Shown here: piece by piece, positions 4,100 through 25,812 of the stretch
How positions within the stretch are numbered: the stretch's first letter is position 1
How the letters are laid out: every line of letters begins with the position of its first letter
IMG/VR virus record: IMGVR_UViG_3300020156_000024
DNA from: a virus
Reading direction: 5' to 3' (one strand)
DNA: 29,122 nucleotides
Made by a program: the position numbers and the translations under genes
The notes under the pieces: generated by a model
The model's database searches: none
What the model was told of the DNA's origin: nothing
The model's input: only the letters and a program-made list of their open reading frames with translations

Positions 4100-4441
4100 A
4101 TGGCCGCCACCGCCCCCACCAACCAGCGCACCGCCCTCGCCTGGGCCCGCCGCCAGCTCACCCGCCAGCTCCGCCCCTACGCCGCCGCGGCCCCCAGGAA
4201 CATCAACGGCCGGTACCGGGTCTCCTTCTGCCGCCACGAACGCGACGCCCGCAACATCGCCCGCGGCTACCTCAGCGACGACATCTTCGACAACTTCGGC
4301 GAGATCGAGTTGGACGGCAACTGGCCCCGCATTGCCGCGCAGCTGGTGTCCCTCGCCAACAACTACTTCCTTCAGGCCAGGGAAGGCAGCACGGAGCTGT
4401 TCACCTTCTACACCTGCGATACGTGCGACCACACCCGCTAG
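4100..4441 (+). CDS. Hypothetical protein
   Basis: GAGAGGAG SD; 113 aa; good codon bias; C-terminal CDTC. Confidence 0.75.
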   Translation: MAATAPTNQRTALAWARRQLTRQLRPYAAAAPRNINGRYRVSFCRHERDARNIARGYLSDDIFDNFGEIELDGNWPRIAAQLVSLANNYFLQAREGSTELFTFYTCDTCDHTR

Positions 4442-5368: not shown

Positions 5369-5404
5369 TGCCCGCGCTGAGCCGAATCGTCCGACAGATG
5401 CGTC

Positions 5405-5443
5405 TTGAAATCTGCATCCGCAGGATGTCATACTGTGTGACAT
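5405..5443 (+). promoter_or_regulatory. Putative promoter/operator of the transfer operon
   Basis: TTGAAA-18-CATACT; inverted repeat ATGTCA-N7-TGACAT over -10. Confidence 0.45.
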
Positions 5444-5533
5444 GCGTCCGATGTGAACCACGGACACGAACAAGGCCTCGTCCGGCGCTGCTACGCCATC
5501 CGAGGCCTCTCACCACCGATTGGAACGGACCCA

Positions 5534-6064
5534 ATGATGGATGAATCCACTGTACAGACGATCCCCGTTTCCTACTTCCTGACCACGACGAACCCGTCAG
5601 CGGGCGTGGAGGTCATGGTCCTGCATGCCGACACGGAAGTCCCCAAGCACTGGGTGGACGGCCGCAGTTACTTCACGGAAACGAACCACTGGCTGTACGA
5701 CGAGCAGAGCATCACCGCAGGCGGGTGGATCTGGAGCGGCTTCCGCTCCTACGCGATTGGCTGGCACTGCACCGGCCCGAGCACTGCCGAGCTGCTCCTG
5801 GAAGCGCGCGTCGACGAGCTCGAGGAGGAGATCGCGAACGAGAGGATCTTGCACGGCCTCACCCGGGAAGACGTGGCCGCCTGCGAGGCCGACATCGAAG
5901 CGCTCAAGGCCCGGCGCATCAAGATCCGAGGCTTCCTGCGCCGCTCCCGCAAGGCCACCGCCGCCGCCGAGGGCCGGTTCAGGGTCGCCCTCCAGGTGGC
6001 CTACGCCGGGTGGTCTGCCGCGATCCTCCTGGCGGCCTTCCTGGTTGAGTCGGTGATCCGATGA
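5534..6064 (+). CDS. Hypothetical coiled-coil protein with C-terminal TM helix
   Basis: ORF 5453..6064, probable start ATG5534; ATGA overlap with next gene. Confidence 0.65.
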   Translation: MMDESTVQTIPVSYFLTTTNPSAGVEVMVLHADTEVPKHWVDGRSYFTETNHWLYDEQSITAGGWIWSGFRSYAIGWHCTGPSTAELLLEARVDELEEEIANERILHGLTREDVAACEADIEALKARRIKIRGFLRRSRKATAAAEGRFRVALQVAYAGWSAAILLAAFLVESVIR

Positions 6065-7473
6065 TCGACGTGCGCGAGTCCGAGACCGCGCCGTCCGAGA
6101 CTGCCGCCAAGGCCGCGGCGAAGGTCACCCGGGTCGCTGGGACGACTGAGGCGCGCATCGCCGAGAAGGACGCCGATTCCGCGCGCCGCCTCCGTGAGCG
6201 CGAGGCTGAAGTCGAACTTAAGCGCCAAGAGGCCAAGCTCAAGCGCGAGCAGGCCACGGCGAAGGCCGACGCCAAGAGCACGCGGAAAGCTGCCGCCGCC
6301 AAGCGCCGGCAGGACCGACGCCGTGCCCGCGCCGAGCGCATCACCAAGGCCGTTACCCGCGTGCAGACCTTCATCGCGGGGAACGCGCCCGCGGTTTACT
6401 CCTCGGGCATCTACGCGATGGCGCTGTACGTCGCCGTGGCCGGGCAGATCAGCATGGCGACCGAGCGCGGCTGGCCGCTCGTCGTCGGTATCGGCATGGC
6501 CGTGTTCCTGGAGGGCCTGGCGCTGAGCATGGCGCTCACGGCGCATCAGCTACGACTCAAGGGCGAGCGGGCCCTCATCCCCGCAGCGATGACGTGGGTT
6601 GCGGCCGGATTCGCGTCGGCGATCAACGTGGTTGCGCACCGCGAGGATCCGGTCATGGCCGCGGTGCTCGGAGCCTCCAGCCTCGCGGCGATCATCGTCT
6701 GGGAGGTCCGCTCCGGCGCGAAGCACCGCGACGCCCTCCGGAAGCTCGGTCTCGTCCCGGACCCGCCGGAGCGGTTCGGGCTGCGCCGCTGGCTCCGGTT
6801 CCCCCGGTCAACGTTCCGGGCTTGGTCCCTGGACGTGCGCGACCGCGTGAGCGACGGTGCAGCCGTGCTCCTGGCCCGAGTCGAGACCGCTGTCCAGGAC
6901 GCCGCCGCCGCCTCCTCGGCGGAGTCCGCGGCCGCCGCGCTGGCAGCCGCGGTCGAGGCCGCCGAGACCGCCGCCCGGGAATCCGGCCGCGCCCGGGCCG
7001 CGGCTGCCGAAGCCCACCGGGCCGCGAGCCGGGCCGACGCGCCGAAGCGCGCGCGCTGGTCCCTGTTCAAGCGCAGCGCCGCGGCCGACGCGCCCGCGCC
7101 CGCCCCGGCCGAAGCGCCCGCGGTCCCGCCCGCGCCCGCGTCGAAGCCGGCCGCCGCGGCCAAGGCGCCCGTCCGCCCCGCGCCCACTGCGGCCCCGACG
7201 GAAGCCGACGGGGCGCCTGCACCGCGCCCGGCCGTGTCCGCCGTGAACTTCACCGTGGTCGAGGACGCCTTCGTGGAGCTGTTCGTGCAGAACGGCAAGC
7301 GCCCGGGGTCGCGTCTGATCGAGCGCGCCGTCAAGGGCGAGCCGGACGCGCCCCGCAAGACGGCGATCGGGGACTGGCTCTCGCGCAACCCCGACAGCAT
7401 CATCGACACGCTCACCGCCCGCGCCGAGGCCCGCCTCGCCGCCCGCGCCACGACGGAGGGACCGTCCGCATGA
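6061..7473 (+). CDS. DUF2637-like membrane protein (plasmid/AICE spread or transfer protein)
   Basis: Coiled coil, 4 TM segments, conserved PERFGLRRWLRFPRSTFRAW, Pro/Ala linker, C-terminal HTH-like region. Confidence 0.75.
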   Translation: MIDVRESETAPSETAAKAAAKVTRVAGTTEARIAEKDADSARRLREREAEVELKRQEAKLKREQATAKADAKSTRKAAAAKRRQDRRRARAERITKAVTRVQTFIAGNAPAVYSSGIYAMALYVAVAGQISMATERGWPLVVGIGMAVFLEGLALSMALTAHQLRLKGERALIPAAMTWVAAGFASAINVVAHREDPVMAAVLGASSLAAIIVWEVRSGAKHRDALRKLGLVPDPPERFGLRRWLRFPRSTFRAWSLDVRDRVSDGAAVLLARVETAVQDAAAASSAESAAAALAAAVEAAETAARESGRARAAAAEAHRAASRADAPKRARWSLFKRSAAADAPAPAPAEAPAVPPAPASKPAAAAKAPVRPAPTAAPTEADGAPAPRPAVSAVNFTVVEDAFVELFVQNGKRPGSRLIERAVKGEPDAPRKTAIGDWLSRNPDSIIDTLTARAEARLAARATTEGPSA

Positions 7474-8024
7474 CCGACCAGCCGCCCGCCGACGGCCGGG
7501 CGCCCGCACCGGGCGCCCGCTCGGCTCTGACCATCGACATCCCGCTTCCGCCCGCCCGCCCAGCCGTCGGCCGCGGCCGGGCGGGCGCGGACGCCCCGGT
7601 GTCCCGCCCGCCCGGCCCGGAGGCGCCGGGGGCCCGGCCGCCCGCCGTGTCGCCCGCGCCCGCACCCGTGGTGCGCCCGTCTCCCGCCGCCCGCCCGGCC
7701 CGCGACCGCCCGCCCGCATCGCGAGCGCCCGCGCCCGGCCTTAGCTATGAGGAGCCCACGATCGAGTGGCGGGCGATCAAGCCGCGGCCGGTCGCCGGGC
7801 ACCGCCCGGTGCGTCTGGCCCGCCCGGCTCCCGTCGGGCGGCACCTCGCCGTCGTCGGATTCGGCGCCGCCGGGCTCGGCCTCGCCGGATGGCTCGCCGG
7901 GCTCCTCTCCTCGACGCTCCCGTTCGTGCTCCTTGGCTGGGGCGCGAGCGGCACGATCGTGCTCCTCGTCGTCGTGCGCATCGGCCGCCGTATCGGCGAC
8001 GCGATCGGCGGTGGCTCCAAGTGA
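7470..8024 (+). CDS. Pro-rich protein with two C-terminal TM helices (Spd-like)
   Basis: GGAGGG SD, ATGA overlap at 7470; 3' part of ORF 6594..8024. Confidence 0.65.
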   Translation: MTDQPPADGRAPAPGARSALTIDIPLPPARPAVGRGRAGADAPVSRPPGPEAPGARPPAVSPAPAPVVRPSPAARPARDRPPASRAPAPGLSYEEPTIEWRAIKPRPVAGHRPVRLARPAPVGRHLAVVGFGAAGLGLAGWLAGLLSSTLPFVLLGWGASGTIVLLVVVRIGRRIGDAIGGGSK

Positions 8025-8033
8025 ACGCGATCA

Positions 8034-8093
8034 GGACATTCGCACGGACATCCGTAGGGACATCGGCAGGGACATGTCCCCGTGTCCGTGTCT
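8034..8093. repeat. GGACAT direct repeats at 12-bp period plus inverted copies; candidate clt/TraB recognition locus
   Basis: GGACAT at 8034, 8046, 8058, 8070; palindrome GGGACATGTCCC 8069-8080; GTGTCC 8082, GTGTCT 8088. Confidence 0.6.
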
Positions 8094-8165
8094 CGCATTG
8101 CCCTTCGACCTCGGTGAACACCGCCGACAGACACCCGCTCCCCTGGATAGGACAGGAGGCCATCC

Positions 8166-9425
8166 GTGGCCGTTGAACCGACCAGCCCGCAACCGCGGGC
8201 ACCCGAACGCGACGGGGTGCCGGGCTCCGAAGTCCTCGGCATGGTCGCGAACGCCGCCGCCCTCGTCCTCACCGCGCTGGGCGGCCTGTGGCTGTGGGTG
8301 GCCGGAGGCCTCCTCGCCGCCGGGGCCGGCGGTCTCGCGTACAACCAGTACCGCAAGCGCCGAGGCGCCCATGGCCGCCGCAGCCCGGCCGGGCACCCGG
8401 GCGGGCGGACCGGTACCGCCCGCTCGGAAGGCTGGCGCCCGTTCAGCCGCGGGCGTTCCGGCCGCGGCCGCTCGGGCGGCGGGCCGGGCGGGCGGTCCAA
8501 CACCGGCCGCAAGGCGGGCGGTCCGCTTGGCGCCCGCACGCCCGGGCGCGGGCGGGCGTCTGGAGCGGGCGGCACCGGTGCGGCCGGGAAGAAGCCGCGC
8601 GGGCGGCGAACGGCCGCTGCCGGAGCGGCCGCGACCGGGGCGAAGCGCCGTCTCCCGTTCGGTCTCGGCCGGAAGGGCCGCGGGACCGGTGCGCCCGGCG
8701 CCGCCCGCTCAGGCGGGCGCTCCGGATCAGGCGGGCGTTCAGGCGGGCGATCGGGCCGTCGAGGTCCCGGTTCCTGGTTCGGCCGCGGGCGCACGGGCGC
8801 GAAGCCCGGAGGCGCCCACGCGGGCGGACGGGCCAGCGGCCGCAAGCCGGGCCGCGGGTCGACGCGTCGTCGCCGGTTCCGCGCCCCCGACCCTCGCCGC
8901 GCTGACACGAAGCTCCTACCCGACAAGACCGACACGAAGCCGCCGACGGCGAAACCGGAGACCGCGAACGAGCCCGCGCAGCCGACCGGTCGGCCCCAAG
9001 CCTCGCAGCCCGCGCAGCGTCCGCCGACGCCCCACCCGAACCGCAACCCGAACACCGTCAACCCGAAAGGACCCAGCATCATGTCCCGACTCGGCCGCAT
9101 GTGGCGCCAGCACTCCGAAGAGGAACTCTCCGCCGCCACCCGCTACGACCCCGAGACCATGCCCGACTACCTCGGCGACCTCCGCGACCTCGTGACCGCG
9201 TTCCAGAACCAGGCCGCCGCACTCGGGAAGATGTCCGCGATCTCCCAGGCCGACCTCCCCGTCGACCAGAACGTCGCCGAGTACATCGCGCAGCTCCAGT
9301 CGCTCATGCACACGATCGCCGAAGGCGCCGACAGCACCGTCTCGAGATTCCTCGCCAAGCACGAGGCCGACATGGCGCGACACAACGCCCCCCGCCCGAA
9401 CGAGAAGAAGTGGAACGTCGGGTGA
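8166..9425 (+). CDS. Transfer-associated protein: N-terminal TM, Gly/Arg-rich linker, helical C-terminal domain
   Basis: AGGAGG SD before GTG8166; GTGA overlap with traB. Confidence 0.7.
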   Translation: MAVEPTSPQPRAPERDGVPGSEVLGMVANAAALVLTALGGLWLWVAGGLLAAGAGGLAYNQYRKRRGAHGRRSPAGHPGGRTGTARSEGWRPFSRGRSGRGRSGGGPGGRSNTGRKAGGPLGARTPGRGRASGAGGTGAAGKKPRGRRTAAAGAAATGAKRRLPFGLGRKGRGTGAPGAARSGGRSGSGGRSGGRSGRRGPGSWFGRGRTGAKPGGAHAGGRASGRKPGRGSTRRRRFRAPDPRRADTKLLPDKTDTKPPTAKPETANEPAQPTGRPQASQPAQRPPTPHPNRNPNTVNPKGPSIMSRLGRMWRQHSEEELSAATRYDPETMPDYLGDLRDLVTAFQNQAAALGKMSAISQADLPVDQNVAEYIAQLQSLMHTIAEGADSTVSRFLAKHEADMARHNAPRPNEKKWNVG

Positions 9426-11605
9426 TCGACCAGCAGACCGCGCCGCCCCCGGCCCCCGCGCCGGGGGCGGCCCCCCGCTCCGCCCGGCCGCGGCCCCTCC
9501 GGGACTGGATCGCCTCCTGGAACTGGAACGCCCACCCGCCCGCATGGGCCGTCGCCAACCTCGCAGTCCTGCTGTTCTGGACCTCCCTGGCCGGGCACCG
9601 CCTCGGCGTGCCGCCGGTGGCCGCGCTCCTCATCGGCGGCATCGGCGCGGCCGCAGCGGTCGGCGCCGCCATGATCGCCGAGCAGGGCGGTGCCGTCATC
9701 GGGTGGCGCCTCGCCTGCTGGATCCTCCCCGCCCTGTGGGCCACGGCCGCCCTTCAATGGTCCCCGCTGCAGCCGTACCTCCTCGGTGCCGGGGTCGGCC
9801 TCGCCCTGGCCGCCTACCTCATCGCCGACGCGATCCGCAAGGCCCGTCGCGCCGCCCAGTCTGCGGGAATTCTCACCGGCGGCGGCAGCACCCAAGTCGC
9901 GACCGCACCGGCCGACCAGATCTGGAACGCCGACGCTCCCGCCGACACCGACGAAGCCAAGCTCGCCGAGAACTGGGACGCCCGGATCCGCCGCGTCACC
10001 TCGATCAAAGGCGCCGAAGTCGTCGGCGTCGGCCTCTGGTCCCAAGGCACCGGGTACACGCTCACCGTCCGCCTGCCCTTGGGCGGCACCTCCTGGAAGG
10101 ACCTCGCCGACTACGCCGAGCCCCTCGCCGAGGACGCCCGCCTCCCCGCTGACTGCGGCATCACCGTCAAGGGCACCAGGCACCGCGGCATCGCCGAAAT
10201 GAAGGTCACCCACCGCAACGTCATGCGCGAGACCCACACCGCCCCCCGCGACTACAGCCCGGCCTCGATCTACGACAAGGCTCCGATCGGGTTCCTCCCC
10301 GACGCCGCCCTCATCAAGATCGCGCTCAAATGGGTGTGGATAGTCCTGATCGGCCAGACCGACTCGGGCAAGTCCTCGATGCTGCACCTGATCAATGCCT
10401 ACCTCGTCCGCTGTGTCGACGCCCTGGTGTGGCAGATCGACATCGGCGGCGGCGGCGGCATCGCCCGACCCTGGATCGCCCCATGGCACCAAGGGCGCGC
10501 CGATCGGCCTGCCATCGACTGGGTCGCGACCACCGTCGAAGAGGCCGAGCTCATGTGCCGCTCCGCGATCGCCATCGTCGAGGGCCGCAAACGGGTCTAC
10601 GCCGACGACCTCGATAACGGCAAGGTCCGCTGCTCGCCGGAGGTCCCGCACATCGTGATCGAGTCCGACGAGACCGCGAACCTGCCCGAGCTCATCAAGG
10701 GCCTCATCACCCAGATCAACCAGACCGGCCGCGGCGCCGGCGTCCGCGGCATCACCTGCTCCCTGCGCGGCACCGCCGACGACCTCCCTACCGCCATCAA
10801 GAAGCACTCGCGGGTGCGCGTCGGCATGCGCGTGAGCGACGCCGACGAGATCCGGTACCTGTTCGACCGGCCCGGCAAAGTCGACCCCGCGCTCGCCGAC
10901 GAGCAGGGGTCGGGCTGGATCGAGCACCAGGACGAGGACGCCGACGGCAAGGCGATCGGCGCCCGCTACATCACCCCGTTCAAAGCGTTCTTCATGCCCG
11001 ACTCGCAGATCGACGAGGCCGCCGTCGCCGTCGCGCTCCTGCGACCCGATCTCGACGCGCCCTCTGTGGCCCTGGCCGACTCGGTCTCCCGGACCGTCCG
11101 CGCCTACACCGACCGGTGGGTGCGCACGATCCCGACCCTGTTCGTCGTCGACGAGGAGCCTGCGCCCGCACCGGTCCCCGCCGACCCCGAGCGGGCCGCG
11201 CGCATCGCCGCGATCGAGGCCGACCAGCAGCGCCGCCACGAGACCGGCGGCAGCATCGAGGAGCGCCTCGCCCGCATGAACGAGCTCGGCGCGAAGATCG
11301 CCGACGGCGCACCCACCGACACGCCGGGGGTTGACCCGGCGACCGTCGCCGAGTTGACTGAGGGCGTACCTGAGGACAACCTCCTCGCGGTCGTGACCGT
11401 CGTCGACCGGGCCGGCGTCGACGGCATCGGTCCCGCCGACATCCTCCGAGCCATCAATGCCGTGCGCGCCGTCGACGACCGGATCAGCGACAAGACGGTC
11501 CAGCGCAAGCTCGCTGAGCTCGTCAATACCGGGATCTTCATCAAGACCGGCCGAGGCCGCTACGTCGCCGCCATCCACACACACCAGGGAGACCAGCATG
11601 AATGA
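9422..11605 (+). CDS. traB: TraB-type FtsK/SpoIIIE conjugative DNA translocase
   Basis: N-terminal TM helices, Walker A GQTDSGKS, Walker B IVIESDE, RGAGVR motif, C-terminal winged helix (ISDKTVQRKLAELV..GRGRY); GTG9422 overlaps upstream stop. Confidence 0.85.
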   Translation: MIDQQTAPPPAPAPGAAPRSARPRPLRDWIASWNWNAHPPAWAVANLAVLLFWTSLAGHRLGVPPVAALLIGGIGAAAAVGAAMIAEQGGAVIGWRLACWILPALWATAALQWSPLQPYLLGAGVGLALAAYLIADAIRKARRAAQSAGILTGGGSTQVATAPADQIWNADAPADTDEAKLAENWDARIRRVTSIKGAEVVGVGLWSQGTGYTLTVRLPLGGTSWKDLADYAEPLAEDARLPADCGITVKGTRHRGIAEMKVTHRNVMRETHTAPRDYSPASIYDKAPIGFLPDAALIKIALKWVWIVLIGQTDSGKSSMLHLINAYLVRCVDALVWQIDIGGGGGIARPWIAPWHQGRADRPAIDWVATTVEEAELMCRSAIAIVEGRKRVYADDLDNGKVRCSPEVPHIVIESDETANLPELIKGLITQINQTGRGAGVRGITCSLRGTADDLPTAIKKHSRVRVGMRVSDADEIRYLFDRPGKVDPALADEQGSGWIEHQDEDADGKAIGARYITPFKAFFMPDSQIDEAAVAVALLRPDLDAPSVALADSVSRTVRAYTDRWVRTIPTLFVVDEEPAPAPVPADPERAARIAAIEADQQRRHETGGSIEERLARMNELGAKIADGAPTDTPGVDPATVAELTEGVPEDNLLAVVTVVDRAGVDGIGPADILRAINAVRAVDDRISDKTVQRKLAELVNTGIFIKTGRGRYVAAIHTHQGDQHE

Positions 11606-11750
11606 CGCCGAACTCACCCGCGAGCAGAAGATCGCGGACGCCGAAGCCCGCCAGCAGGAACTGCACGAGACCGGCGGCACCGTCGAGGAGCGCGTTGCCC
11701 GCCTCAAGGAGCTCGGCGAGCAGATCACCGACGAGCCCGCATCCGAGTAG
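11598..11750 (+). CDS. 50-aa acidic protein homologous to an internal TraB segment
   Basis: AGGGAG SD; overlaps traB stop; 21/34 identity with TraB segment encoded at 11204-11305. Confidence 0.75.
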   Translation: MNDAELTREQKIADAEARQQELHETGGTVEERVARLKELGEQITDEPASE

Positions 11751-11760
11751 GCCAATGCCG

Positions 11761-11796
11761 CAGCGCGCCGCCACGGACCCCGTCGGCGGCGCGCTG
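11761..11796 (+). terminator. GC-rich hairpin ending the transfer operon
   Basis: CAGCGCGCCGCC..GGCGGCGCGCTG; no U-tract. Confidence 0.45.
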
Positions 11797-11835
11797 GCGT
11801 TATGATCCCCGCACACCTACATGGAGAGGCCCGCC

Positions 11836-12210
11836 GTGCGCGATCCGTCGGACATGACCCCGGCCGAACTGCGCTGCCTCCGTGAGGAACTACGGCTCAC
11901 CGTGCGGGCATTGAGCGCCGCGATCGGCCAGACCTACCAGACGATCAGCAGGTGGGAATCCGGCAAGCGCGCCCCATCGCGGTACAGCGCGAACGCGCTG
12001 GTCGACCTTGCGACATTCACCGAAGCGGCTGTGGCTGACATGGTCAAAACTCACGAACCCGGGTCGACCATCGTCACCTACCTGGACGACGAGACGTTCC
12101 AAGAGCACGTCGACATCGGTACCTTCGTGCTCCCGGCGGCGTGGCATAGAGGCGTGGCCTGGCGCGCCGCCCGGCAGATTCCCGGAGCCACCATCACCTA
12201 CCAGTCCTGA
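11836..12210 (+). CDS. XRE-family HTH protein (possibly DUF1870/Aca2-YdiL-like)
   Basis: MTPAELRCLREELRLTVRALSAAIGQTYQTISRWESGKRAP; GGAGAGG SD before GTG11836; TATGAT at 11801. Confidence 0.8.
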   Translation: MRDPSDMTPAELRCLREELRLTVRALSAAIGQTYQTISRWESGKRAPSRYSANALVDLATFTEAAVADMVKTHEPGSTIVTYLDDETFQEHVDIGTFVLPAAWHRGVAWRAARQIPGATITYQS

Positions 12211-12262
12211 CCTCCTCGGCGAACCGGGCACGAGCACTTCACGCCCGCTCTACGCTCCTCTC

Positions 12263-13495
12263 GTGGAGTTGCCTGCACCGATGCTGCCCACCGCGGGGCC
12301 GCTGCCGACCGGGCCGGGGTGGGCGTTCGAGATGAAGTGGGACGGCGTCAGGCTGATCAGTGGATTGGAGCGCGGGATCCTGCAGATGCGCACCCGCCAA
12401 GGCAAGAACGTGCCCGCCTCCCAGTTCCCGGAGCTCACCGAGATCGCCGAAGTCGGGGACGTCATCCTCGACGGTGAGCTGACCGTGTTCGACGGCGACC
12501 GCACGGATTTCGGGGCTGTCCTCCGCAGGCTTCTCGCCCGCGGTCACCGTGCCGCCGTCCTGGCCGAGGAGTATCCGGCGACGGTGCTCGTGTTCGATGT
12601 CCTCCGGTTCGACGGTGAGGATCTACGCCGCCGCCCGTACGAGGAGCGGCGCGCGATCCTCGAGTCGCTCGAGCTCCCGCCCAACTGGGTGGTGCCGCCG
12701 AGTTTCACGAACGGGCCCGCGACGGTCGCGGTGAGTCTCGAGCACGGGCTGGAGGGCGTGGTCGCGAAGCGTTTGGCGTCGCGCTATTCGAGCGGCCGGT
12801 CCAGGAACTGGGTGAAGCAGAGACACCAGGGGATCATCGACGCGGCCGTGGTTGGGTGGGTTCGCAGACCCTCCGGCGGCCTCTCGCTGCTCCTCGCCGA
12901 GCCCGGCACGCTCCTGTACGTCGGCAGGTGCACCGCGCCACGGGGACTCGTCGAAGCCCTCGCGCCGCTCGCCACCGGCACTCCGGCCACGACCGTGCCC
13001 GCCCAGTCCGGTGCCGTGCAGTGGGTCCAGCCGGTGCTGCAGGTCGAGGTGACCGCGTCTTCGCGGGAGCCGGACGGGCGGTTGCGGCAGGCGCGGTTCG
13101 TGCGCGCCCGTCTCGACCAGATCGGGTTACCAGGCACGACGAAACGGCCCCGCCGAAGCGGGGCCGCATCATGCGAACTCACATACCAACAACTCCAGTT
13201 GGCATGTGAGCCAACATCTCAACTCTCAGGCGCGAGCGTTGAGTTCTACTCGGTGGGCGTGTGCTTGACCGTCCCGAGCGGGATCATGCTCGCAGACCCC
13301 TCCGTACCGACCGGCGCGGAACCGATCGACCACGCGAGACTCGCGCCGACCGCCAGCCCGACGACACCCCAGGAGTGCGCCCAGTCGATGTCGTTCCACC
13401 CCCCGACCGCCTCGGCCGTCAGGACCGCGAACCAGGTCCCGCCGAACGTCTTGATGGCACGGTCGCTGGTCTCACGCCAGAAGCGCTTCGTGTAG
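12263..13495 (+). CDS. ATP-dependent DNA ligase (LigD/LigC-type ligase + OB domain); recognisable domain ends ~13126, frame stays open to 13495
   Basis: EMKWDGVR, ILDGEL, VFDVL, LEGVVAK, WVKQR, GRLRQARF motifs; TACGCT 6 nt before GTG12263 suggests leaderless start. Confidence 0.85.
   Translation: MELPAPMLPTAGPLPTGPGWAFEMKWDGVRLISGLERGILQMRTRQGKNVPASQFPELTEIAEVGDVILDGELTVFDGDRTDFGAVLRRLLARGHRAAVLAEEYPATVLVFDVLRFDGEDLRRRPYEERRAILESLELPPNWVVPPSFTNGPATVAVSLEHGLEGVVAKRLASRYSSGRSRNWVKQRHQGIIDAAVVGWVRRPSGGLSLLLAEPGTLLYVGRCTAPRGLVEALAPLATGTPATTVPAQSGAVQWVQPVLQVEVTASSREPDGRLRQARFVRARLDQIGLPGTTKRPRRSGAASCELTYQQLQLACEPTSQLSGASVEFYSVGVCLTVPSGIMLADPSVPTGAEPIDHARLAPTASPTTPQECAQSMSFHPPTASAVRTANQVPPNVLMARSLVSRQKRFV
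13138..13166 (-). terminator. Terminator of the late/lysis operon
   Basis: Minus strand CGGCCCCGC-TTCG-GCGGGGCCG-TTTCGTC (C(UUCG)G tetraloop). Confidence 0.7.
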
Positions 13496-13500
13496 TACAT
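13246..13500 (-). CDS. Holin (r1t-like family)
   Basis: FWRETSDRAIKTF..two TM..SIGSAPVG pattern; AAGGAG SD; lysis context. Confidence 0.85.
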   Translation of the reverse strand: MYYTKRFWRETSDRAIKTFGGTWFAVLTAEAVGGWNDIDWAHSWGVVGLAVGASLAWSIGSAPVGTEGSASMIPLGTVKHTPTE

Positions 13501-13527: not shown

Positions 13528-14235
13528 CTATTCGGTGGCGGCGGCGACGCAGATGACCGCGTCGACAGTGCCGTTGGTGGTGAGGACGGTCTGCGCCTCA
13601 GGTGCAGAGCCCTCAGGGCATAGCGGCAAGCCGTGTTCGGCTACGTATCCCTCGACCTGGGCACGGATCTCGTCCTCGGTCGGTGGCCGGCCGGGCTCGC
13701 CCTGCGCCCCGTCCTGGCCGTCCGCACCGTCGGCCCCGTCCTGGCCGTCAGCTCCTGCAGGTCCGGGCGGCGGCGGGTTCTCCGCGAGGTAGGCCGCCAT
13801 CGCGGCGTACAGCTGCTCGTTGAGCAGGTCCGGGTGATCGGCGAGGACCGAAGCAAACGCGGCGGTAAGCTCAGCGGCGGACGGCTCGAACTCGTACGGG
13901 TGGTCCGCGAAGTACCGCGCGAACGCGGCCTGGATCTGCGGGTCGGTCAGGGTTGGCCCCGGAGGGCCGGGCGGCCCGGTCGGCCCCGATGGGCCGGGAG
14001 CTGGCGTGTACTCCGGGTCCTCGAGAAGTTCCTCGGGCTGCGGAGCGATCGGCTCGACGCCCTGAGCCTCCGCGTTGGACTGCTCGTCACCGAGGGCCGC
14101 CGAGAGCGCGTCGACCCGGGCCTCCTGGACCTCCGACCGCCACAGGACTGCGGCGACGGCGACCAGAACCAGGAGGATCTGCCCCCAGTGTGCGATTGCC
14201 CGCCGGGTCGGGGCCCGTAGCTTCGGCATCCTCAT
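13528..14235 (-). CDS. Membrane-anchored collagen-like protein of lysis cassette
   Basis: N-terminal TM, G-X-Y repeats, C-terminal Cys pair. Confidence 0.75.
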   Translation of the reverse strand: MRMPKLRAPTRRAIAHWGQILLVLVAVAAVLWRSEVQEARVDALSAALGDEQSNAEAQGVEPIAPQPEELLEDPEYTPAPGPSGPTGPPGPPGPTLTDPQIQAAFARYFADHPYEFEPSAAELTAAFASVLADHPDLLNEQLYAAMAAYLAENPPPPGPAGADGQDGADGADGQDGAQGEPGRPPTEDEIRAQVEGYVAEHGLPLCPEGSAPEAQTVLTTNGTVDAVICVAAATE

Positions 14236-14543
14236 ACCGGGCCTCCGGTCGCGGAGACGACGTCGACGACGATGGACAGGGCGGCGGCGAGCATGGCGCC
14301 GACGACCATGCGGCGGTCAGCTGCGCGCCGTTCGATATTCGCGGTCTTGTCGGCCTCCAGTGCGCCCACGAGACGTTCGACGGACTTCTCCACGTTGGTG
14401 ACGCGGTCGTTGACCCGGCCGAGGTGGGCATCGTGGACCTCGCGGGATACGAGTCCGGCGAGGTCGCTGCGGAGCTCTGTGAAGTCGTCCTTCACGTCCT
14501 TGCGGAACTGCGCGATCTCGCGGCCGATCGGGTCGTCGGGCAT
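14232..14543 (-). CDS. Coiled-coil protein with C-terminal TM (lysis cassette)
   Basis: 103 aa, follows endolysin, ATGA overlap with next gene. Confidence 0.75.
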   Translation of the reverse strand: MPDDPIGREIAQFRKDVKDDFTELRSDLAGLVSREVHDAHLGRVNDRVTNVEKSVERLVGALEADKTANIERRAADRRMVVGAMLAAALSIVVDVVSATGGPV

Positions 14544-14552
14544 GGGCGGGCC

Positions 14553-15701
14553 TTACTCGCGAGCCTCGTTGTCGACGCTACCGAGGACCTCGCGGAGCGC
14601 AGCGGCGACGGCGGCCGTGTCGAGATCGTGGTCGACCGCGGCGGCGACCGCGGTGGCCAGCTCTTCCGGGGACGGGATCGCCTGTCGGACGCCTTCGGCG
14701 ACCGCGGCCGTGATGGCGTCTTCGGTGAGGCCCGACTGGCCCGCAGCGATCGACTTCATCAGGGCTGTCTGCTTGGCCTGCTCGGCGGCGATCTTCTGCC
14801 CGTACAGCAGCGTGTAGTAGTGGTTGGAGGCCGCGAGGAACTTCGCCGGCCACTTGGTGCCCGAGTAGGCAACGCCCTGCCCGGTGATCAGGGGAATTTC
14901 TTCGTCCCAGGTGCTCATGTCGTCCTCCAGGAGGTGTCGTAGGGCGGCCGCGGTGTCGCGGTCGTAGATGCCGTTGGTGGTGATGCGGGCGCGGCGCTGG
15001 AGCTCGCGCACCGCCGCGGTCGTGGCGGGGCCGAAATCGCCGTCCTCGACCAGGCCCGCGTTGATCACGCCGTTGAGGTAGACCTGCAGCGCAAGGACCG
15101 CGGGCCCTTCGGCGCCTTCTCGCAGCGTGGGGGCGGGGAGGCCGGCCACCGGGAGCTTGCCCGCATCGGTGCCCCACGCCCGCTTAAACCAGTCCTCCAA
15201 GGACTCGCCCGAGAGCAGCGACGCGAGGCCTTCCAACGCCTTGCGGTCACCGGCATAGGGCGTGAGAATGCCGATGTGCACATGCCAGGTGTGGGAGGTG
15301 TCGGAGCTGGCCGAGCGGTAAGCGCCGTCCTCGGAGTCCTTGATGCGACCGACGACCGTCCGGCCGTCGAGGGTCCCGTAGAACTCTTTGACGCACCGCA
15401 TTCGCGGGTCCCGTCGGGCGGCGCCGTCCAGGAGACGCCGCGTGATCGTCCTCATCCACGTGTCGTTCATCGTGAGGTCGATCGCGCGCGCTTTGTCCTT
15501 GGGGTCGCGTCGGTCGATCGCGTGCCGGACCGAGTAGTTGCCGGGCCATTTCGACAGGTTGGCGAAGACCGTGTTGTGGTAGCCCTTCTTGTCGGCGTAG
15601 ATCCCGCCGAGGCGCACGCCCGGGATGAAGCCGTGGCAGGCGAGCCACAGCCACCACATTGCGTCCGTGATGTAGGTGCGGTTCGGGTTCGCCGTGGCCA
15701 T
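14553..15701 (-). CDS. Endolysin: putative Zn-peptidase domain + peptidoglycan-binding domain
   Basis: YHN..RAIDL..HTWHVHI metal motif; PG_binding_1 pattern LREGAEGPAVLALQ..DGDFGPATTAAVRELQ. Confidence 0.85.
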   Translation of the reverse strand: MATANPNRTYITDAMWWLWLACHGFIPGVRLGGIYADKKGYHNTVFANLSKWPGNYSVRHAIDRRDPKDKARAIDLTMNDTWMRTITRRLLDGAARRDPRMRCVKEFYGTLDGRTVVGRIKDSEDGAYRSASSDTSHTWHVHIGILTPYAGDRKALEGLASLLSGESLEDWFKRAWGTDAGKLPVAGLPAPTLREGAEGPAVLALQVYLNGVINAGLVEDGDFGPATTAAVRELQRRARITTNGIYDRDTAAALRHLLEDDMSTWDEEIPLITGQGVAYSGTKWPAKFLAASNHYYTLLYGQKIAAEQAKQTALMKSIAAGQSGLTEDAITAAVAEGVRQAIPSPEELATAVAAAVDHDLDTAAVAAALREVLGSVDNEARE

Positions 15702-15886
15702 TAGTCCAGGCCCTTCGGGGATGGGCCTGCGGAGCGCAGCCGCTCGAACTCGTCGTCGTCCAGGACCACGATGTGTCCCGCGCGGTCGCGGACCTCCCAG
15801 CGGTTGCCCTCGCTGTCGGGTGTGGTCTGGCGGACCTCGTAGCCGCGCTCGGCGTCGAACAGGTGCCAGCCGTGGGGATCGGCCAT
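15701..15886 (-). CDS. Hypothetical 61-aa protein
   Basis: AAGGAGG SD before ATG15886; stop overlaps endolysin start. Confidence 0.65.
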   Translation of the reverse strand: MADPHGWHLFDAERGYEVRQTTPDSEGNRWEVRDRAGHIVVLDDDEFERLRSAGPSPKGLD

Positions 15887-15938
15887 GGGTCCTCCTTGGA
15901 TCTGGGCACGCCGAGGGAGACGGGCCGGTGATGGATTG

Positions 15939-16736
15939 CTAGGACTGGAGGCTGTAGCAGCGGTCGACGATGACGCGGGACTGGACGCCCGCGGTGTTTC
16001 GCGCCCACAGCTGCACCGAGTGCGAGGTGCCATTCGGTTCGATGGTCGAGCCCCAGCCGGGAACGTCGAACGTGGCCACGGTCGTGCCTGACGCCGAGCC
16101 CGCGACGACGCCGTCGACCTGCAGCTGCCAGTCGACCGTCCCCGAGGGGGCGTTCGTGCCGACACCGATGGAGATCCGCGGATGCCACAGCGTCGTGATG
16201 CCGTGCATGACCTCCTGGTAGGCCACGTTTGTGAACGCCGGCCAGAACGGTCCGCCGGTGGCAACGGACGTGCCCGTCGACGGGACCATCGGGATGTTCA
16301 GGTAGGGGCGCGCCAGGCCGACACCCGTCTCGGAGTCGTTGGAGACGAGCTCGTTGCCGAGGCGGTCCAGACCGGCCCAATAGGACCGGTCGGTGCTGCC
16401 GAAGAGCCCGAACGCGGGGTCGCCGTTGCCGTGGGAGAACCGCCAGACCGCGACGCCGGATGCGTTGGTGCCGATGAACACCAGGCCGATCGTGTCGTCC
16501 TCGTTGGTCATGCGCAGGGCGCCGCCGCGGATGATGATGTCGCCGGCGTCGTTGACTTCGATATTCCCGGCATCTTCGACGACGATCCGTGCGCCGGAGT
16601 GGACTCGGAACACCCCTTCGCTGACCGAGGTGGCCTGGGCGGTGCGGGCGGTTCGTGATTGCTGGTTGCGGCGGCGATCGTCCTGGATGGCTCGTAGTGG
16701 CCCGTCGCCTGCTGTCGCGTCAGTCCAGACCGTCAC
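15939..16736 (-). CDS. Minor tail protein
   Basis: GGAGGGG SD before GTG16736; beta-rich; position after hub protein. Confidence 0.75.
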   Translation of the reverse strand: MTVWTDATAGDGPLRAIQDDRRRNQQSRTARTAQATSVSEGVFRVHSGARIVVEDAGNIEVNDAGDIIIRGGALRMTNEDDTIGLVFIGTNASGVAVWRFSHGNGDPAFGLFGSTDRSYWAGLDRLGNELVSNDSETGVGLARPYLNIPMVPSTGTSVATGGPFWPAFTNVAYQEVMHGITTLWHPRISIGVGTNAPSGTVDWQLQVDGVVAGSASGTTVATFDVPGWGSTIEPNGTSHSVQLWARNTAGVQSRVIVDRCYSLQS

Positions 16737-16738
16737 GG

Positions 16739-18865
16739 CTACCCCTCCGATACTGCTGTGCTGAGCGCGGTTGCGTCGAGGGCCGGGTCGACGGCGAGTC
16801 GGGGGACCCACTGGGATTCATTGGGGTTGAGGGTGAACCCGGTCATCCGGCGGGCGCCGATGAGCGGCCGCCGTTCGGGGTTGCGGGGCCCGGTGAGCCG
16901 GTACGGGGCGAGGTCGCCGAGGTTGATATCGATGCCCGGCCGCGGGTAGTCGTACAGCTGGCTGGTGATCTCGATGACCTGGGTGCCGTCCTTGGTGCGG
17001 GCGAGTTCCGCATCGGAGTGGTCTTGGAGCAGATCAGAGGCGGTGATGTTGTTGCCCGGTTCGACGATCAGCTCGACGATGGGGATACCGGACTGGAGCG
17101 CGACGAGGTCGATCGAGGGCGCCGAGGACGGCTGGTCGTCGCCTTGGCCGGGACCGATCGCCGTCACATAGTTCGCGTAGTTCCCGTCCCGCCAGGACTC
17201 CTTGAGCGTGTAGGAGATGACCGCGCCGTCGCCGGTTTCGAACATGGCTGTCGCGGTCGGTGTGGTGCGGCCGATCCGGCGGCGGATACGGAGGATCTTC
17301 TGGACGATGGTCTGCGACGCGTCGGCCCAGTCGAAGTAGATCTCGAACTCCAGTCCCTGCACGCACAGGGCCCGGATCGCGTCGTACACGGAGGTCCGGT
17401 CGGTGGCCTTGTACTCGATGTCGATCAGTTCACCGGTGTTCTCGACGTCGAATTCGAGACCGAGGCCCTGGAACTGGCCGTCGATCTGCTCGGCGTCGAG
17501 CGCGAGCTGGTAAGCGACCTGCGCCCGGTCGGCCTGCACGAACACGTGGTCCTTGACCTTGCGTTTCGCGAAGTACCCCTCTGGGGTGACCGTGGGCACC
17601 GACAAGTCGTTGCCGGATCCGCCAGCCCGGTCGATCGGCAGGCCCATCCACATCGGGACGTCGTTGACGATGGCCACCAAAGCACCCGATGCGCCGTCGG
17701 TGCACGCTTCGGCGTCCTCGATCGACACGTACCCCTGGCCGTCGCCGGCGAGCGGGATCGACATCTCGGCGTTCGCGTACGCCGAGAGGTTCCGTGCGGG
17801 TGACCCGGTGAAGTCGGGGAGTTCGGCGATGATCCGGCCGGTGCGCTGGTTGATCCCGACGGCGGTGACCGATTCCCTGACGATGGGGACGCCGTAGCCG
17901 ACGGGGGGCGTGATCGGGCCGGGTGTGACGGCTTCGGGGCCGATCCACGTCCGGAAGATGTGCCAGATGTGCGGGGGGCCGATGATCCACGCCGAGTACC
18001 AGACACGCCAGCCTTCGACCCCGTCGAGGGTGTCGGGCAGGAGCGTGGCGCGGTAGAGCGCGGTGTGCTCGCCGGGCTGCTCCTGTGGGATGACGGTCCT
18101 ACCGCTGTTGGTGAATGTCCACCCGTCCTCGCTGACGCAGAACAGGAGCAGGCCGTTGATGCCGGAGATGTCCTGGTTGCAGTCGTTGAGGAGCGCTATG
18201 TAGCCGTCGGTGGTGCGGAGGAGGTCGAGGTGCCAGGCTTCTTTCCCGGGCAGCATGGGGCCCATGTCGACGCCGACCGGGTCGCCCCAGGCCGCTGAGA
18301 GGGTCGCGCCGCCCTGCAGCCGGACGACCTGGTTGGGGCTGGGGACGATGTCGACCGCCCACATCGTCCACGCGCCGCCCTCGAAGAGGATGCAGGGGGA
18401 GAGGAGGCGCCGAACGGTCTGATCGGACGAGTAGAACAGGGTCTTGGGTTCCCATGCGACACCGTCCGCCGAGGTGGAGAAGTAGAGCTTCTCTTCCGCA
18501 CCCACAGCGGCGACGTCGTAGGTGCGCCACACCAGGTAGAACACGCCGTTCACGTAGCGCAGGTCGGTGTCGGAGTTGTATGCGCCCGGGGAGCCGGGTT
18601 GGTCGTCGATCGGGTTGACCAGGCCCTCCGGCACCACCCAGGTGATGCCGTCGTTCGACGCTGCGATGCACGGGTCTTCGAACTCGTCGTCGCCGCCGGC
18701 GTAGGGCGTGTACGCCATCCAGTACGTGAACCCGGAGACGGGGGCGTCGAGGCGCACGATCGACGGGTGCGTGACCTCCCCGTCGGTAGCGTGCTGCGGG
18801 GTGGGGATCGCCAGGCGTGTCCCGTAGTTCCCCGAGATCTGTGTCGGGTCAGGCAGGGCCACCAC
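16739..18865 (-). CDS. Minor tail/baseplate hub protein (ReqiPepy6 Gp37-like) with N-terminal glycoside hydrolase-like beta-propeller
   Basis: N-term THPSIV..YWMAYTPY..EDPCIAASNDGITW with SxDGxxW repeats; C-term TGRIIAELP..YANYVTAIGPGQG..INLGD hub pattern. Confidence 0.75.
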   Translation of the reverse strand: MVALPDPTQISGNYGTRLAIPTPQHATDGEVTHPSIVRLDAPVSGFTYWMAYTPYAGGDDEFEDPCIAASNDGITWVVPEGLVNPIDDQPGSPGAYNSDTDLRYVNGVFYLVWRTYDVAAVGAEEKLYFSTSADGVAWEPKTLFYSSDQTVRRLLSPCILFEGGAWTMWAVDIVPSPNQVVRLQGGATLSAAWGDPVGVDMGPMLPGKEAWHLDLLRTTDGYIALLNDCNQDISGINGLLLFCVSEDGWTFTNSGRTVIPQEQPGEHTALYRATLLPDTLDGVEGWRVWYSAWIIGPPHIWHIFRTWIGPEAVTPGPITPPVGYGVPIVRESVTAVGINQRTGRIIAELPDFTGSPARNLSAYANAEMSIPLAGDGQGYVSIEDAEACTDGASGALVAIVNDVPMWMGLPIDRAGGSGNDLSVPTVTPEGYFAKRKVKDHVFVQADRAQVAYQLALDAEQIDGQFQGLGLEFDVENTGELIDIEYKATDRTSVYDAIRALCVQGLEFEIYFDWADASQTIVQKILRIRRRIGRTTPTATAMFETGDGAVISYTLKESWRDGNYANYVTAIGPGQGDDQPSSAPSIDLVALQSGIPIVELIVEPGNNITASDLLQDHSDAELARTKDGTQVIEITSQLYDYPRPGIDINLGDLAPYRLTGPRNPERRPLIGARRMTGFTLNPNESQWVPRLAVDPALDATALSTAVSEG

Positions 18866-20157
18866 TACCCCCGGATGTAGTCGACGTAGAGGTAGGACGG
18901 TTCGTTCGCGTTGGCGTTGCACGCGAGGGTGCCGGTGCCGGTCTGCCGCAGGCACGTCACCACGAATGTCTTCGACCCGGTCGCGACTGCCGTGTACTCG
19001 ACTTCGAACCCGATGGGGTAGTCGGTGCCGGGCCCATGGATCACCGAGTTCTTCAGCGACAGCTGCGTCCCCGCGACGTTGTCCTCACGAATCCTGAACC
19101 GGGCCAGGTCACCGGTGACGGTCCCTGCGACGTCCGCGTCCCACCGGATCTTGTAGGTCGCCCCCGACACCAGCGACGCGGTCACCGAGTTGATGAGCGT
19201 CTCGGACGTGAAACTGGAGGAGTTGGTGGTGCGGATCGTGGTGGCGATGCGCCTGATGGACGCGAAGTTCGTGGGGGACGCGAGCGACACCCACGCCGCG
19301 CCAGTCCACACCTCCAGTGTGGAGGTGTCCTGGCGCCAGATCATCATGCCGTGGTAGCGGCCCGTCGTGGGACGGTCGGACGTGCCGCGCACGGGAAGGA
19401 TCCCGGCGCCGAGCGCGTACTGCGCCAGCGAATCGACCGTGTGCGGCAGGCCCGACCCGGTCGAGTTCACGCGCAGAACCGCGAGCCGGATCGAGTTCGC
19501 GGTCACCGTGGGAGCTGTGGGGGTGCCGGCGGGGGCGCCGGGCACGTACAGGATGCGGGCCCGCCGCTGGCCGAGGCCGTCTTCGTCGTCGTCCTGGACC
19601 TGCAGGTCGATGCCGTCCAGGCGCGGGTTGGACGAGTCGGGCGGGTTGACCGAGCCGTTCACGGCGTCGTACTCGACGACGTAGGGGCCGGAGGTCGAGG
19701 TCAGGCGCGGGTAGACCACGGCGAGGCCTTCAGCGACCGAGTAGGTGGTGCCCGCGATCGTCACCGCGTCGCTGGAGTGCGGGCGGACACCGGTGCGCGC
19801 GCCGAGCCGGTCGGTCGACCCGGGGTGGAGGGTGATGGCGGCGAGGCGGCGCATCTGCACCGCCGCGTAGGAGGGGACGCCGAGGAGCACGTCGGCGGTG
19901 CCGTCGGCGTCGAAGTCCCACATTTCCGCGCCCGTGGGGGTGGAGATCCGGAAGTCGTTCACGGTGGGGTCGCGGACCACGTATTCGGTGTGCTCGCGCA
20001 GTTCCAGGGCGCCGCCGGTCCGGTTCTCGACGGTGATCAGGTCGCCGTCGACCAGGCCGTGTCCGGTGATCGTGACGCGGTTCGTGGCCGCGCTGATGGG
20101 CGCTGCCGCGGCGACGACCGTGACGCCGTCGAAGTTCATCCAGCCCGCTGAGGACAC
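18865..20157 (-). CDS. Minor tail protein
   Basis: PPDSSNPRLDGIDLQVQD..PTAPTV..LAVLRV and YHGMMIWRQDT..LEVWTGAAW patterns of actinophage tail proteins. Confidence 0.75.
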   Translation of the reverse strand: MSSAGWMNFDGVTVVAAAAPISAATNRVTITGHGLVDGDLITVENRTGGALELREHTEYVVRDPTVNDFRISTPTGAEMWDFDADGTADVLLGVPSYAAVQMRRLAAITLHPGSTDRLGARTGVRPHSSDAVTIAGTTYSVAEGLAVVYPRLTSTSGPYVVEYDAVNGSVNPPDSSNPRLDGIDLQVQDDDEDGLGQRRARILYVPGAPAGTPTAPTVTANSIRLAVLRVNSTGSGLPHTVDSLAQYALGAGILPVRGTSDRPTTGRYHGMMIWRQDTSTLEVWTGAAWVSLASPTNFASIRRIATTIRTTNSSSFTSETLINSVTASLVSGATYKIRWDADVAGTVTGDLARFRIREDNVAGTQLSLKNSVIHGPGTDYPIGFEVEYTAVATGSKTFVVTCLRQTGTGTLACNANANEPSYLYVDYIRG

Positions 20158-20186
20158 AAGGCCACCCCTATCCAGGTGTTGGGAAT

Positions 20187-20217
20187 GCGAAAAGCCAGAC
20201 CGGGAGGCGATCTGGCT
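20187..20217 (-). terminator. Intrinsic terminator inside the tail operon
   Basis: Minus strand AGCCAGATCG-cctcc-CGGTCTGGCT-TTTCGC. Confidence 0.55.
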
Positions 20218-20241
20218 GGGGACGAGAGGGGTCGAGGGCGG

Positions 20242-21165
20242 CTACCACCAGGCGGAGCGGTACTCCACCCTTGCCTGAGCGGTCGGGGTGTAGTTCGCGG
20301 CGAGGAACCGCAGCCGGTTCACGCCCGGCAGGAACGGGAAGGCGTCCATCAGCCAGGTCGCGGCTCCCCGCTGGTTCGCTTCGATGAGGCCGTTCAGCAG
20401 GGCCCGCTTGCGGACGGTGTCCACATCGATCCACTGGCCCTCACCCAAGGTGATGTTCAGGCTGATGGACTGCACGGTCCGGTCGGAGCGTTCGAGGATC
20501 AGCCGCGGCTCCACTACGGGGCCGTCGATGCGGATGAGAGCGCCGGTGGCAGTGGTGCCGAGGTTGTTGATCTCGACCTGACCGCCCTGCGTGGTCCCCG
20601 GGATCCGGAACGGGAGCCGCAGGCCCCGCCGCCACACTGAGGAGACCAGCTCCGCACCGATGCGCAGGCCACCGCGCTGGACCGGCAGGCCCGTGGTGAC
20701 GGTGGTGAGGTTGCCGGAGTAGATGCGGGGGTCACCGGCGACGAACGCGGTGGCGATCTTCGCGCGCCCCAAAGCGATCTCGTCGATGTCCGGTTCGACA
20801 CCGCGGGGCCTGCCGAACAGGACGTACTCGTCGGGGTCGTCCTTGAGGCGGAAGCGGAGCTCAGCGATTTCGCCGGTCGCGCCTACCGCGGAGAACGCGG
20901 CGGCCATCTGCTGGATCGCGGCCCGTGTCGAGGGAATGTCCGCGTTGGCGCCGTTGGCGATCACCCTGATGGGAACCACACGGGGGTCTTGCCATTCGGC
21001 GCCAACCCAGGCGCCGTGCGCGTAGGGGCGATCGCCGCCCTGCGTGGCCCTCACCGAGGTGAAGAACGGGTTGAAATCCTTCTGGACGTCGAAGAGGGTG
21101 CCCGCACCCATGAGGAAATCGCGGGCGGTCCCGATCAGATGGACCTGCTCGACGGCGAGGGCCAT
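20242..21165 (-). CDS. Distal tail protein (Dit)
   Basis: Follows tape measure; LFGRPRG..FVAGDPRIYS..INNLGT..IDGPVVEP..FLPGVNRLRF..YRSAWW. Confidence 0.85.
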   Translation of the reverse strand: MALAVEQVHLIGTARDFLMGAGTLFDVQKDFNPFFTSVRATQGGDRPYAHGAWVGAEWQDPRVVPIRVIANGANADIPSTRAAIQQMAAAFSAVGATGEIAELRFRLKDDPDEYVLFGRPRGVEPDIDEIALGRAKIATAFVAGDPRIYSGNLTTVTTGLPVQRGGLRIGAELVSSVWRRGLRLPFRIPGTTQGGQVEINNLGTTATGALIRIDGPVVEPRLILERSDRTVQSISLNITLGEGQWIDVDTVRKRALLNGLIEANQRGAATWLMDAFPFLPGVNRLRFLAANYTPTAQARVEYRSAWW

Positions 21166-23933: not shown

Positions 23934-23951
23934 CTGGCCTCCTCTCGGGGC

Positions 23952-24943: not shown

Positions 24944-24969
24944 GCTGCTCTCCTGGCCGTGAGGTCTGG

Positions 24970-25023
24970 CCTTGGACATGGAAAGGGACCCGCGCACCCC
25001 GGCCAGGTTGGTGCACGGGCCCC
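24970..25023 (-). terminator. Hairpin/attenuating terminator after major tail gene
   Basis: Minus strand GGGGCCCGTGCACC..GGTGCGCGGGTCCC-TTTCC. Confidence 0.45.
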
Positions 25024-25026
25024 GGT

Positions 25027-25754: not shown

Positions 25755-25812
25755 GCCCGACCTCCCCCGTCCGGTGGATGTGGACCTTCGGCGGGGCCGC
25801 TACGGTGGGCCG

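Follow-up and report, generated by a model that had tools for sequence, protein, structure and literature searches.

A translocase linker hairpin and its putative co-translated copy in an FtsK/TraB-like locus of actinomycete prophages

The window analyzed here is a stretch of viral DNA of 29,122 nucleotides (nt) from the IMG/VR record IMGVR_UViG_3300020156_000024, and its subject is a gene of 50 amino acids (aa), termed S, which lies directly behind the gene of an FtsK/SpoIIIE-like DNA translocase. S evidently arose by the duplication of a helical hairpin of about 40 residues, termed T, which in the translocase links the FtsK-type motor to a winged-helix-like domain. Its sequence marks S as a real protein-coding gene, the last of the translocase operon and apparently translated by coupling to the translocase stop. 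S is under purifying selection, with a constraint estimated to be at least equal to that on T. Two close lineages, furthermore, bear the marks of recent gene conversion between T and S, which occurred in each of them separately.

Double-stranded DNA is transported by FtsK/TraB-type pumps during cell division, in Streptomyces conjugation and in many actinophages. The coupling of their DNA-reading domain to the motor and the restraint of the pump activity are poorly known. A linker hairpin which has long been kept as a separate, co-translated mini-protein is of value here as it singles out the hairpin as an element with a function in interaction. It also makes that hairpin simple to approach by experiment, since a single 50-aa peptide and a single silent point mutation would suffice. 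The features of the translocase and of S are as follows.

9422-11605, + strand: FtsK/SpoIIIE-like ('TraB-like') double-stranded DNA translocase gene, 727 aa (P0004), identified by phrog_31069, tblastn and Foldseek
11180-11305, + strand: T, predicted helical hairpin, parent or paralogue of S (residues 588-629 in the translation from 9419), identified by the AlphaFold2 (AF2) model and the alignment to S
11378-11569, + strand: predicted C-terminal winged-helix-like domain, residues 654-717 (AF2, predicted local distance difference test score (pLDDT) 76-85, pattern H-H-H-E-E)
11587-11591, + strand: Shine-Dalgarno (SD) sequence GGGAG for S, within the last translocase codons and 6 nt before the ATG
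11598-11750, + strand: S, 50-aa gene, free-standing copy of the hairpin T, identified by BLASTP, orthologues, GC signature, selection analysis and AF2

The small gene and its parent hairpin

The resemblance between S and T extends over most of the small protein. The stretches 11204-11305 and 11631-11732 align without gaps, with 21 of 34 residues and 79 of 102 bases identical; both the coordinates and the residue count had been reported in the first-pass annotation and were exact on recount. The local alignment can be extended to about 42 residues, of which 23 are identical. A BLASTP comparison of the 50-aa product with the translocase gives an E-value of 3e-10, and a tblastn search with the translocase against its own downstream DNA returned a sole significant non-self match (E 3.4e-10). 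No third copy of T or S was found in the 29-kb window. Structure prediction agrees with the alignment, as the AF2 model of S (mean pLDDT 82) consists of a helix at residues 3-25, a turn and a helix at residues 29-45, a hairpin like that of T, in which the helices are predicted at residues 590-609 and 613-628. The helical hairpin that had been postulated from the letters of the sequence is therefore predicted for both copies.

The coding nature of S is supported by its base composition and its start. The GC content at the first, second and third codon positions is 0.81, 0.40 and 0.87 in the S frame, as against 0.70, 0.51 and 0.92 in the translocase, and values of about 0.8/0.4/0.87 are the signature of real genes in such high-GC genomes. 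The S ATG overlaps the translocase TGA by 8 nt (ATGAATGA), so that the earlier reading of a gene with its own SD and a start within the traB stop holds. No promoter-like site was detected upstream of S. Searches of Pfam, NCBIfam and PHROGs with S gave no match, the ESM Atlas gave no usable match by features, and a Foldseek search of the PDB with the S model found none.

The translocase starts with a GTG which overlaps the stop of an upstream gene of 415-419 aa. Its residues 100-595 match phrog_31069 ('FtsK/SpoIIIE-like protein') at E 1.5e-69, and residues of about 180-575 are 36-39% identical by tblastn to FtsK/TraB-type genes of Streptomyces plasmids and phages, with E-values reaching 2e-76 against plasmid genes, several of which are annotated as FtsK/SpoIIIE or DNA translocase FtsK. 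Likewise, FtsK motor structures (6t8g) are the top Foldseek matches of the translocase model (E 1e-6), and the translocase profile matches FtsK in the PDB at E 1e-3. The motifs GQTDSGKS and SDET are kept across the homologues, in keeping with the Walker A and Walker B elements of an FtsK P-loop motor. Pfam, with its FtsK_SpoIIIE model, gave no match even at E 10, and neither did NCBIfam. The protein is best placed, on these comparisons, in a divergent subfamily of FtsK/SpoIIIE.

The FtsK-type homology to all these relatives ends at about residue 575-595, just before T, and the AF2 winged-helix-like domain begins behind T, which puts T between the ATPase and the winged helix as the first-pass annotation had it. 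A disordered stretch rich in acidic residues and proline is predicted between the T hairpin and the C-terminal domain, and the domain itself is flanked by the T and S repeats. Foldseek finds for it weak matches to MarR- and MotA-type winged helices, the fold being a predicted one (pLDDT about 80). The motor is poorly resolved in the AF2 model of the full translocase (mean pLDDT 53), from which nothing but the secondary structure of the C-terminal part was taken.

The FtsK-homologous P-loop motor, the predicted C-terminal winged-helix-type domain and the N-terminal membrane helices are held in common with FtsK/SpoIIIE and with Streptomyces TraB. The present translocase differs from them in falling below the Pfam FtsK_SpoIIIE threshold and in its T hairpin between motor and winged helix, which like the S gene is confined to the present small phage subfamily. 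The name 'traB' given to the gene earlier is accurate as far as it denotes an FtsK/SpoIIIE-like translocase (phrog_31069), here in the setting of a prophage. The name is a functional label and a family resemblance for a phage-type translocase whose reading of a cis site (KOPS or clt) and role in conjugation are putative.

Conservation, selection and exchange between the copies

When 5.8 billion clustered proteins were searched with the C-terminal region of the translocase, only 13 relatives came up. They are 56-76% identical in that region and 58-78% identical to the translocase of the window over the whole protein; among the loci that carry S, the translocases are 57-78% identical to that of the window where they can be aligned. 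The DNA of these relatives was compared together with that of two genome matches and two further small-protein matches. T is found in all 14 translocase homologues. A small open reading frame (ORF) of 47-68 aa stands behind the translocase stop in each of the 13 loci, the window included, that have readable sequence at this place, and in every one of them its start overlaps that stop by 4, 8 or 11 nt and is preceded by an SD. The SD (GGAGG or GGAAGGA) keeps the same position in every related locus. S had already been called as a gene by gene callers in all the metagenomic contigs, and the relation between S and T seen in the window holds in the 12 loci (12/12) in which both the translocase and S could be aligned. 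The three overlap lengths put S in different frames relative to the translocase. This agrees with coupling by termination and reinitiation, and a conserved frameshift is thereby ruled out. A search for self-similar genes downstream of traB homologues, suggested in the first-pass annotation, has hence found S in 13 of 13 readable loci, and the view that the ORF is maintained gains from this count and from the selection described below.

Two observations concern the junction itself. In L014 (844-1050) the S orthologue has an N-terminal extension of 18 residues, which brings it to 68 aa, and its GTG overlaps the translocase stop by 4 nt; the trait of S under conservation appears to be the coupling to the stop, rather than the length. 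The C-terminal tail of the translocase (DQEGP or HQGDQ; 11580-11597 in the window) shares bases with the SD of S (GGAAGGA or GGGAG), and its conservation may be owed to the ribosome-binding site rather than to protein function.

The family is a narrow one. A word-based protein search with S retrieved one protein, 96% identical, and the diverged orthologues were reached through the translocase. A profile of 12 S sequences run against 1.84 billion representative proteins of any length gave five matches, namely three small proteins, one translocase (via T) and one spurious repeat protein. The last, P0021 of 713 aa, matches the profile by chance through a short repeat of the KDKILNTD type. Neither a T-like hairpin nor a self-similar downstream ORF is present in five TraB/FtsK loci at a greater distance, three of them from actinomycete plasmids and two from actinophages. 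A scan of metagenome contigs found nothing, the scans of genomes and viral contigs found only Glycomyces artemisiae and one metagenome-assembled genome, and in the nearest genome (G001) the sole match is a distant, FtsK-like one. On this sampling T and S co-occur and are confined to one small lineage of actinomycete prophages.

The strength of selection was estimated from five phylogenetically independent orthologue pairs as the ratio of the proportions of nonsynonymous and synonymous differences (pN/pS), with a one-sided Fisher test. For columns 2-44 the ratio is 0.46 in S (p 3.6e-8), an outcome in line with the purifying selection for which a test had been proposed, and 0.55 in T (p 8e-5). 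In the N-terminal third, where the two copies are distinct (TREERIA in S and DPxRAARIA in T), the ratio for S is 0.44 (p 2e-4). The residues R8, I12, A13, E16, Q19, G27, L39 and I43 are invariant in both S and T and lie on a heptad-like seam, and T7, E9 and V29 are family-conserved residues particular to S. The ratio of nonsynonymous to synonymous substitution rates (dN/dS) between T and S of the window is about 1, a figure which compares paralogues and is no measure of the constraint on S.

Each S is 52-87% identical to the T of its own locus, and the two share states that differ between lineages. Examples include ADQ..RRH, ARQ..ELH and ARQ..EAY/EEY, as well as G or M at column 26, R or G at column 32, LG or LK, and IA/IT or IL. 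With one representative per clade, the true pairing of S and T was equalled or beaten by 4-8 of 720 permutations, and by 4-8 of 120 when the most extreme clade was left out. One old duplication followed by independent evolution predicts that S should be equally like the T of its own and of other loci; as this is not so, something holds the copies together.

In L013 and L004 that something is recent gene conversion. Tracts of 72 and 78 nt, respectively, are base-identical between T and S there (P < 5e-5 by shuffling), and five codons that differ between L013 and L004, with lineage-specific synonymous changes, are mirrored in both copies of each locus, so that conversion is ongoing and took place separately in these two close lineages. 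In L014, the third member of this clade, the copies have diverged and its T carries AEQRQQ, which is otherwise typical of S; this suggests that conversion works in both directions. As a natural case of a gene that undergoes conversion with a fragment of itself, the locus is a clean one. For the older co-variation, either old conversion or selection for matching may be responsible. Co-variation between traB and the ORF, which had been put forward as a check, is therefore found by lineage, but it comes at least partly from the conversion seen in L013 and L004 and does not necessarily reflect matching at an interface.

A smaller case is seen in L002, the closest relative of the window (4% diverged), in which T has ACC GTC (TV) at 9580-9600, the state that is invariant in S, where the window (11249-11254) and the outgroup L006 have AGC ATC (SI). 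It is a candidate for a short micro-conversion from S to T.

The repeats may also recombine. The contig L021 encodes a translocase of 631 aa (P0017) which ends directly past the hairpin with an S-type tail, T and S being fused. The contig is 93% identical to L004, and when its positions 4100-4400 are set against 5768-6315 of L004, exactly the 422 nt that separate T from S are absent. With them the winged-helix domain and S as a gene of its own are lost, and behind the stop come the conserved stem-loop and then the next gene. L021 is the product expected from recombination between the T/S direct repeats; it may be either a true deletion variant or an artefact in which the assembly collapsed the repeat. 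A cost of the T/S arrangement is that the repeats permit the deletion of the recognition domain.

Possible roles of the copied hairpin

A two-helix hairpin with a narrow seam of hydrophobic residues and alanine is unlikely to be stable alone and would need a partner. S could form a pseudo-homodimeric four-helix bundle together with the translocase's T hairpin, or it could take the docking site of T. In either case it would act as a co-made accessory subunit, or as a modulator, positive or inhibitory, of assembly or of the coupling between the motor and the DNA-recognition domain. The translocase is proposed as the partner because the hairpin is unlikely to be stable by itself, because the seam is shared with T, and because S would be produced solely along with the translocase and beside it. 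The binding to TraB and the roles of inhibitor, antidote or exclusion factor that the first-pass annotation put forward are likewise putative. This pairing or docking as a co-made subunit or modulator is the best explanation of the data, and it is offered tentatively, at somewhat short of an even chance.

Several points weigh against it. S is moderately constrained (pN/pS about 0.5), and in neither S nor T is there constraint on the acidic tail. Gene conversion by itself can, to judge from the L013 and L004 tracts, account for the co-variation, and outside the L013 clade the codon identity at shared residues is no higher within loci (0.66) than between clades (0.63). The family is very small and the role of S may be marginal. 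Moreover, the binding of S to the translocase is inferred. A complex prediction with translocase residues 575-728 and S as alignments, run without controls, gave a score of 0.00 and counts neither for nor against.

Precedents for small proteins in such a place exist. TraB of pSVH1 binds several small, translationally coupled plasmid proteins, of which Spd198 binds at the C-terminal domain that recognizes DNA (PMC4447253). Like these Spd/Orf proteins of the Streptomyces conjugative plasmids, S is a small gene in the operon of an FtsK-like translocase with overlapping stop and start, and both the operon location and the translational coupling are found in all 13 of the S-bearing loci. Unlike S, none of the Spd/Orf proteins is reported to be a copy of a TraB segment, and their element is a plasmid where the present one is a prophage. 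No relationship of S to the Spd family was found through Pfam, NCBIfam or PHROG, and the profile search retrieves only the tiny family of S itself.

A partial near-copy that is co-produced with a full-length protein and modulates it by homotypic pairing, as is proposed for S, is also known from inhibitor isoforms of the same gene, such as the lambda holin/antiholin S105/S107 and the Tn5 transposase and its inhibitor. Those isoforms share their sequence and differ in which start of a single ORF is used, whereas S is a paralogue with a gene of its own, which lies in a different reading frame and has diverged to 52-87% identity.

The closest analogues are the microProteins, or small interfering peptides, of plants and animals, for example LITTLE ZIPPER and Id (reviewed in PMC9638782). 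These are small single-domain proteins derived from the interaction module of a larger multi-domain relative, and pairing with that module is expected of them. S resembles them in size (47-68 aa with one predicted helical hairpin) and in parentage (E 3e-10 to translocase residues 588-629). The described microProteins are eukaryotic, mostly unlinked to their parents and active on transcription factors, and their binding is proven experimentally; S is of prokaryotic or phage origin, directly behind its parent, translationally coupled to it and gene-converted with it, and its pairing is a proposal. The first-pass annotation knew of no described equivalent, which is true of TraB/FtsK systems in the literature searched but not in general, the eukaryotic microProteins being a described analogue. 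What is new is the combination of an FtsK/TraB-type pump as the parent, a copy placed on the stop codon of the parent and the demonstrated gene conversion with it.

A more specific form of the proposal is that S is a prokaryotic microProtein whose hairpin pairs one to one with the T of each subunit and so gates hexamer assembly or the way in which the DNA-recognition domain is engaged. Repeated gene conversion would keep the partners matched while the phage lineage diverges. This is a speculative possibility, to be held with some doubt. If true, it would be a regulatory principle so far undescribed for FtsK/TraB motors or phage proteins; the very small size of the family limits its general importance unless the principle proves to be common.

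S might instead mimic T toward another target, competing for a host or phage partner or poisoning related incoming translocases as an exclusion factor. The invariant positions are common to T and S, so any target that recognizes T could recognize S, and the S-specific T7, E9 and V29 indicate that S is not simply interchangeable with T. Being always coupled to the translocase stop and having no detectable promoter of its own, S is however made only with the translocase, which is unexpected for an immunity or exclusion factor in a lysogen, and no candidate for a third partner was identified. An exclusion or immunity factor with expression of its own fits the obligate coupling less well than does a co-made TraB partner, and the mimicry of T toward another target is unlikely.

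It could also be that the S peptide has no function, being a copy repaired by conversion from the selected T, with its translation serving the geometry of the operon end and its terminator. Gene conversion is demonstrated, a conserved stem-loop stands 6-11 nt past the S stop, open frames are cheap in DNA of 70% GC and the T-S dN/dS of about 1 in the window would be expected of such a copy. However, selection is as strong in the distinct N-terminal part, in which conversion is not seen (pN/pS 0.44), residues that are invariant and specific to S exist, and the start, SD, frame and stop are intact in 13/13 loci despite near-saturated synonymous divergence. A functionless peptide is hence quite improbable.

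Likewise, the T and S direct repeats could act at the level of DNA, bracketing the DNA-recognition domain as a cassette for exchange between related phages or for deletion by homologous recombination. L021 is exactly the T/S recombinant so predicted, with 422 nt lost, no winged helix and an S-type tail, but it is a single instance, in which the element may be defective or the assembly may have collapsed the repeat. The synonymous sites of T and S diverge freely (pS 0.34-0.44), so no DNA motif is kept beyond the coding, which also disposes of a clt-like motif in the repeats, and the start codon, the SD and the selection at the protein level would be left unexplained. As the principal role of the arrangement such a cassette is very unlikely, and it is compatible with the pairing of S with the translocase, the two not being exclusive. 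Finally, an alternative C-terminal extension of the translocase by programmed frameshifting, to which the overlapping ORFs might point, can be dismissed as extremely improbable, since overlaps of 4, 8 or 11 nt give differing relative frames among the loci and a start codon and SD are present in every locus.

Genomic surroundings

The two features that follow S lie outside the T/S pair.

11761-11796, + strand: GC-rich stem-loop with a stem of 12+3 base pairs, at a distance of 10 nt from the S stop and with TATGAT (11801-11806) behind it
11821-12210, + strand: gene of an HTH_3/HTH_31 (Xre-type) DNA-binding protein (PF01381 E 2e-8, PF13560 E 2e-7)

The 12+3 base-pair stem is conserved in 10 loci. 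In all loci the stem-loop starts 6-11 nt past the S stop and is followed by GCGTTATGAT or TATCGTGAT; it is seen at the equivalent place in L003, L004, L006, L007 and L009-L013. L013 and L004 have a differing stem sequence in which the self-complementarity is retained. The stem-loop has no U-tract, and it is likely to be an operon-end terminator, the operator-promoter (-10) region of the following Xre-type gene, or both. As S is followed by the stem-loop and then by the upstream region of the next gene, S is the last gene of the operon. The Xre-type gene keeps the same position in the related loci.

The operon region (5400-13500 of the window) contains the gene of a DUF2637 protein (6061-7473), that of the 415-aa protein, the translocase and S. 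It converges on phage lysis and tail genes (13528-29000), which include a tape measure on the minus strand (21165-23933). The window and a Joint Genome Institute contig 96-98% identical to it carry the tape-measure gene, a peptidoglycan-binding lysin and other virion genes. IMG/VR lists the relative from Glycomyces artemisiae among its viral contigs, with a length of 59 kb, and phrog_31069 also occurs in Streptomyces and Thermobifida phages. The surroundings are those of a prophage, and for the pump a role in the phage and one in conjugation are equally likely.

Two genes past S, most loci have an ATP-dependent DNA ligase (PF01068/PF04679; 12008-13495 in the window), and in L009 (5943-6803) a Ku protein (PF02735) stands in the place of the ligase. 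End-joining genes thus appear to be exchanged at one position among the related prophages.

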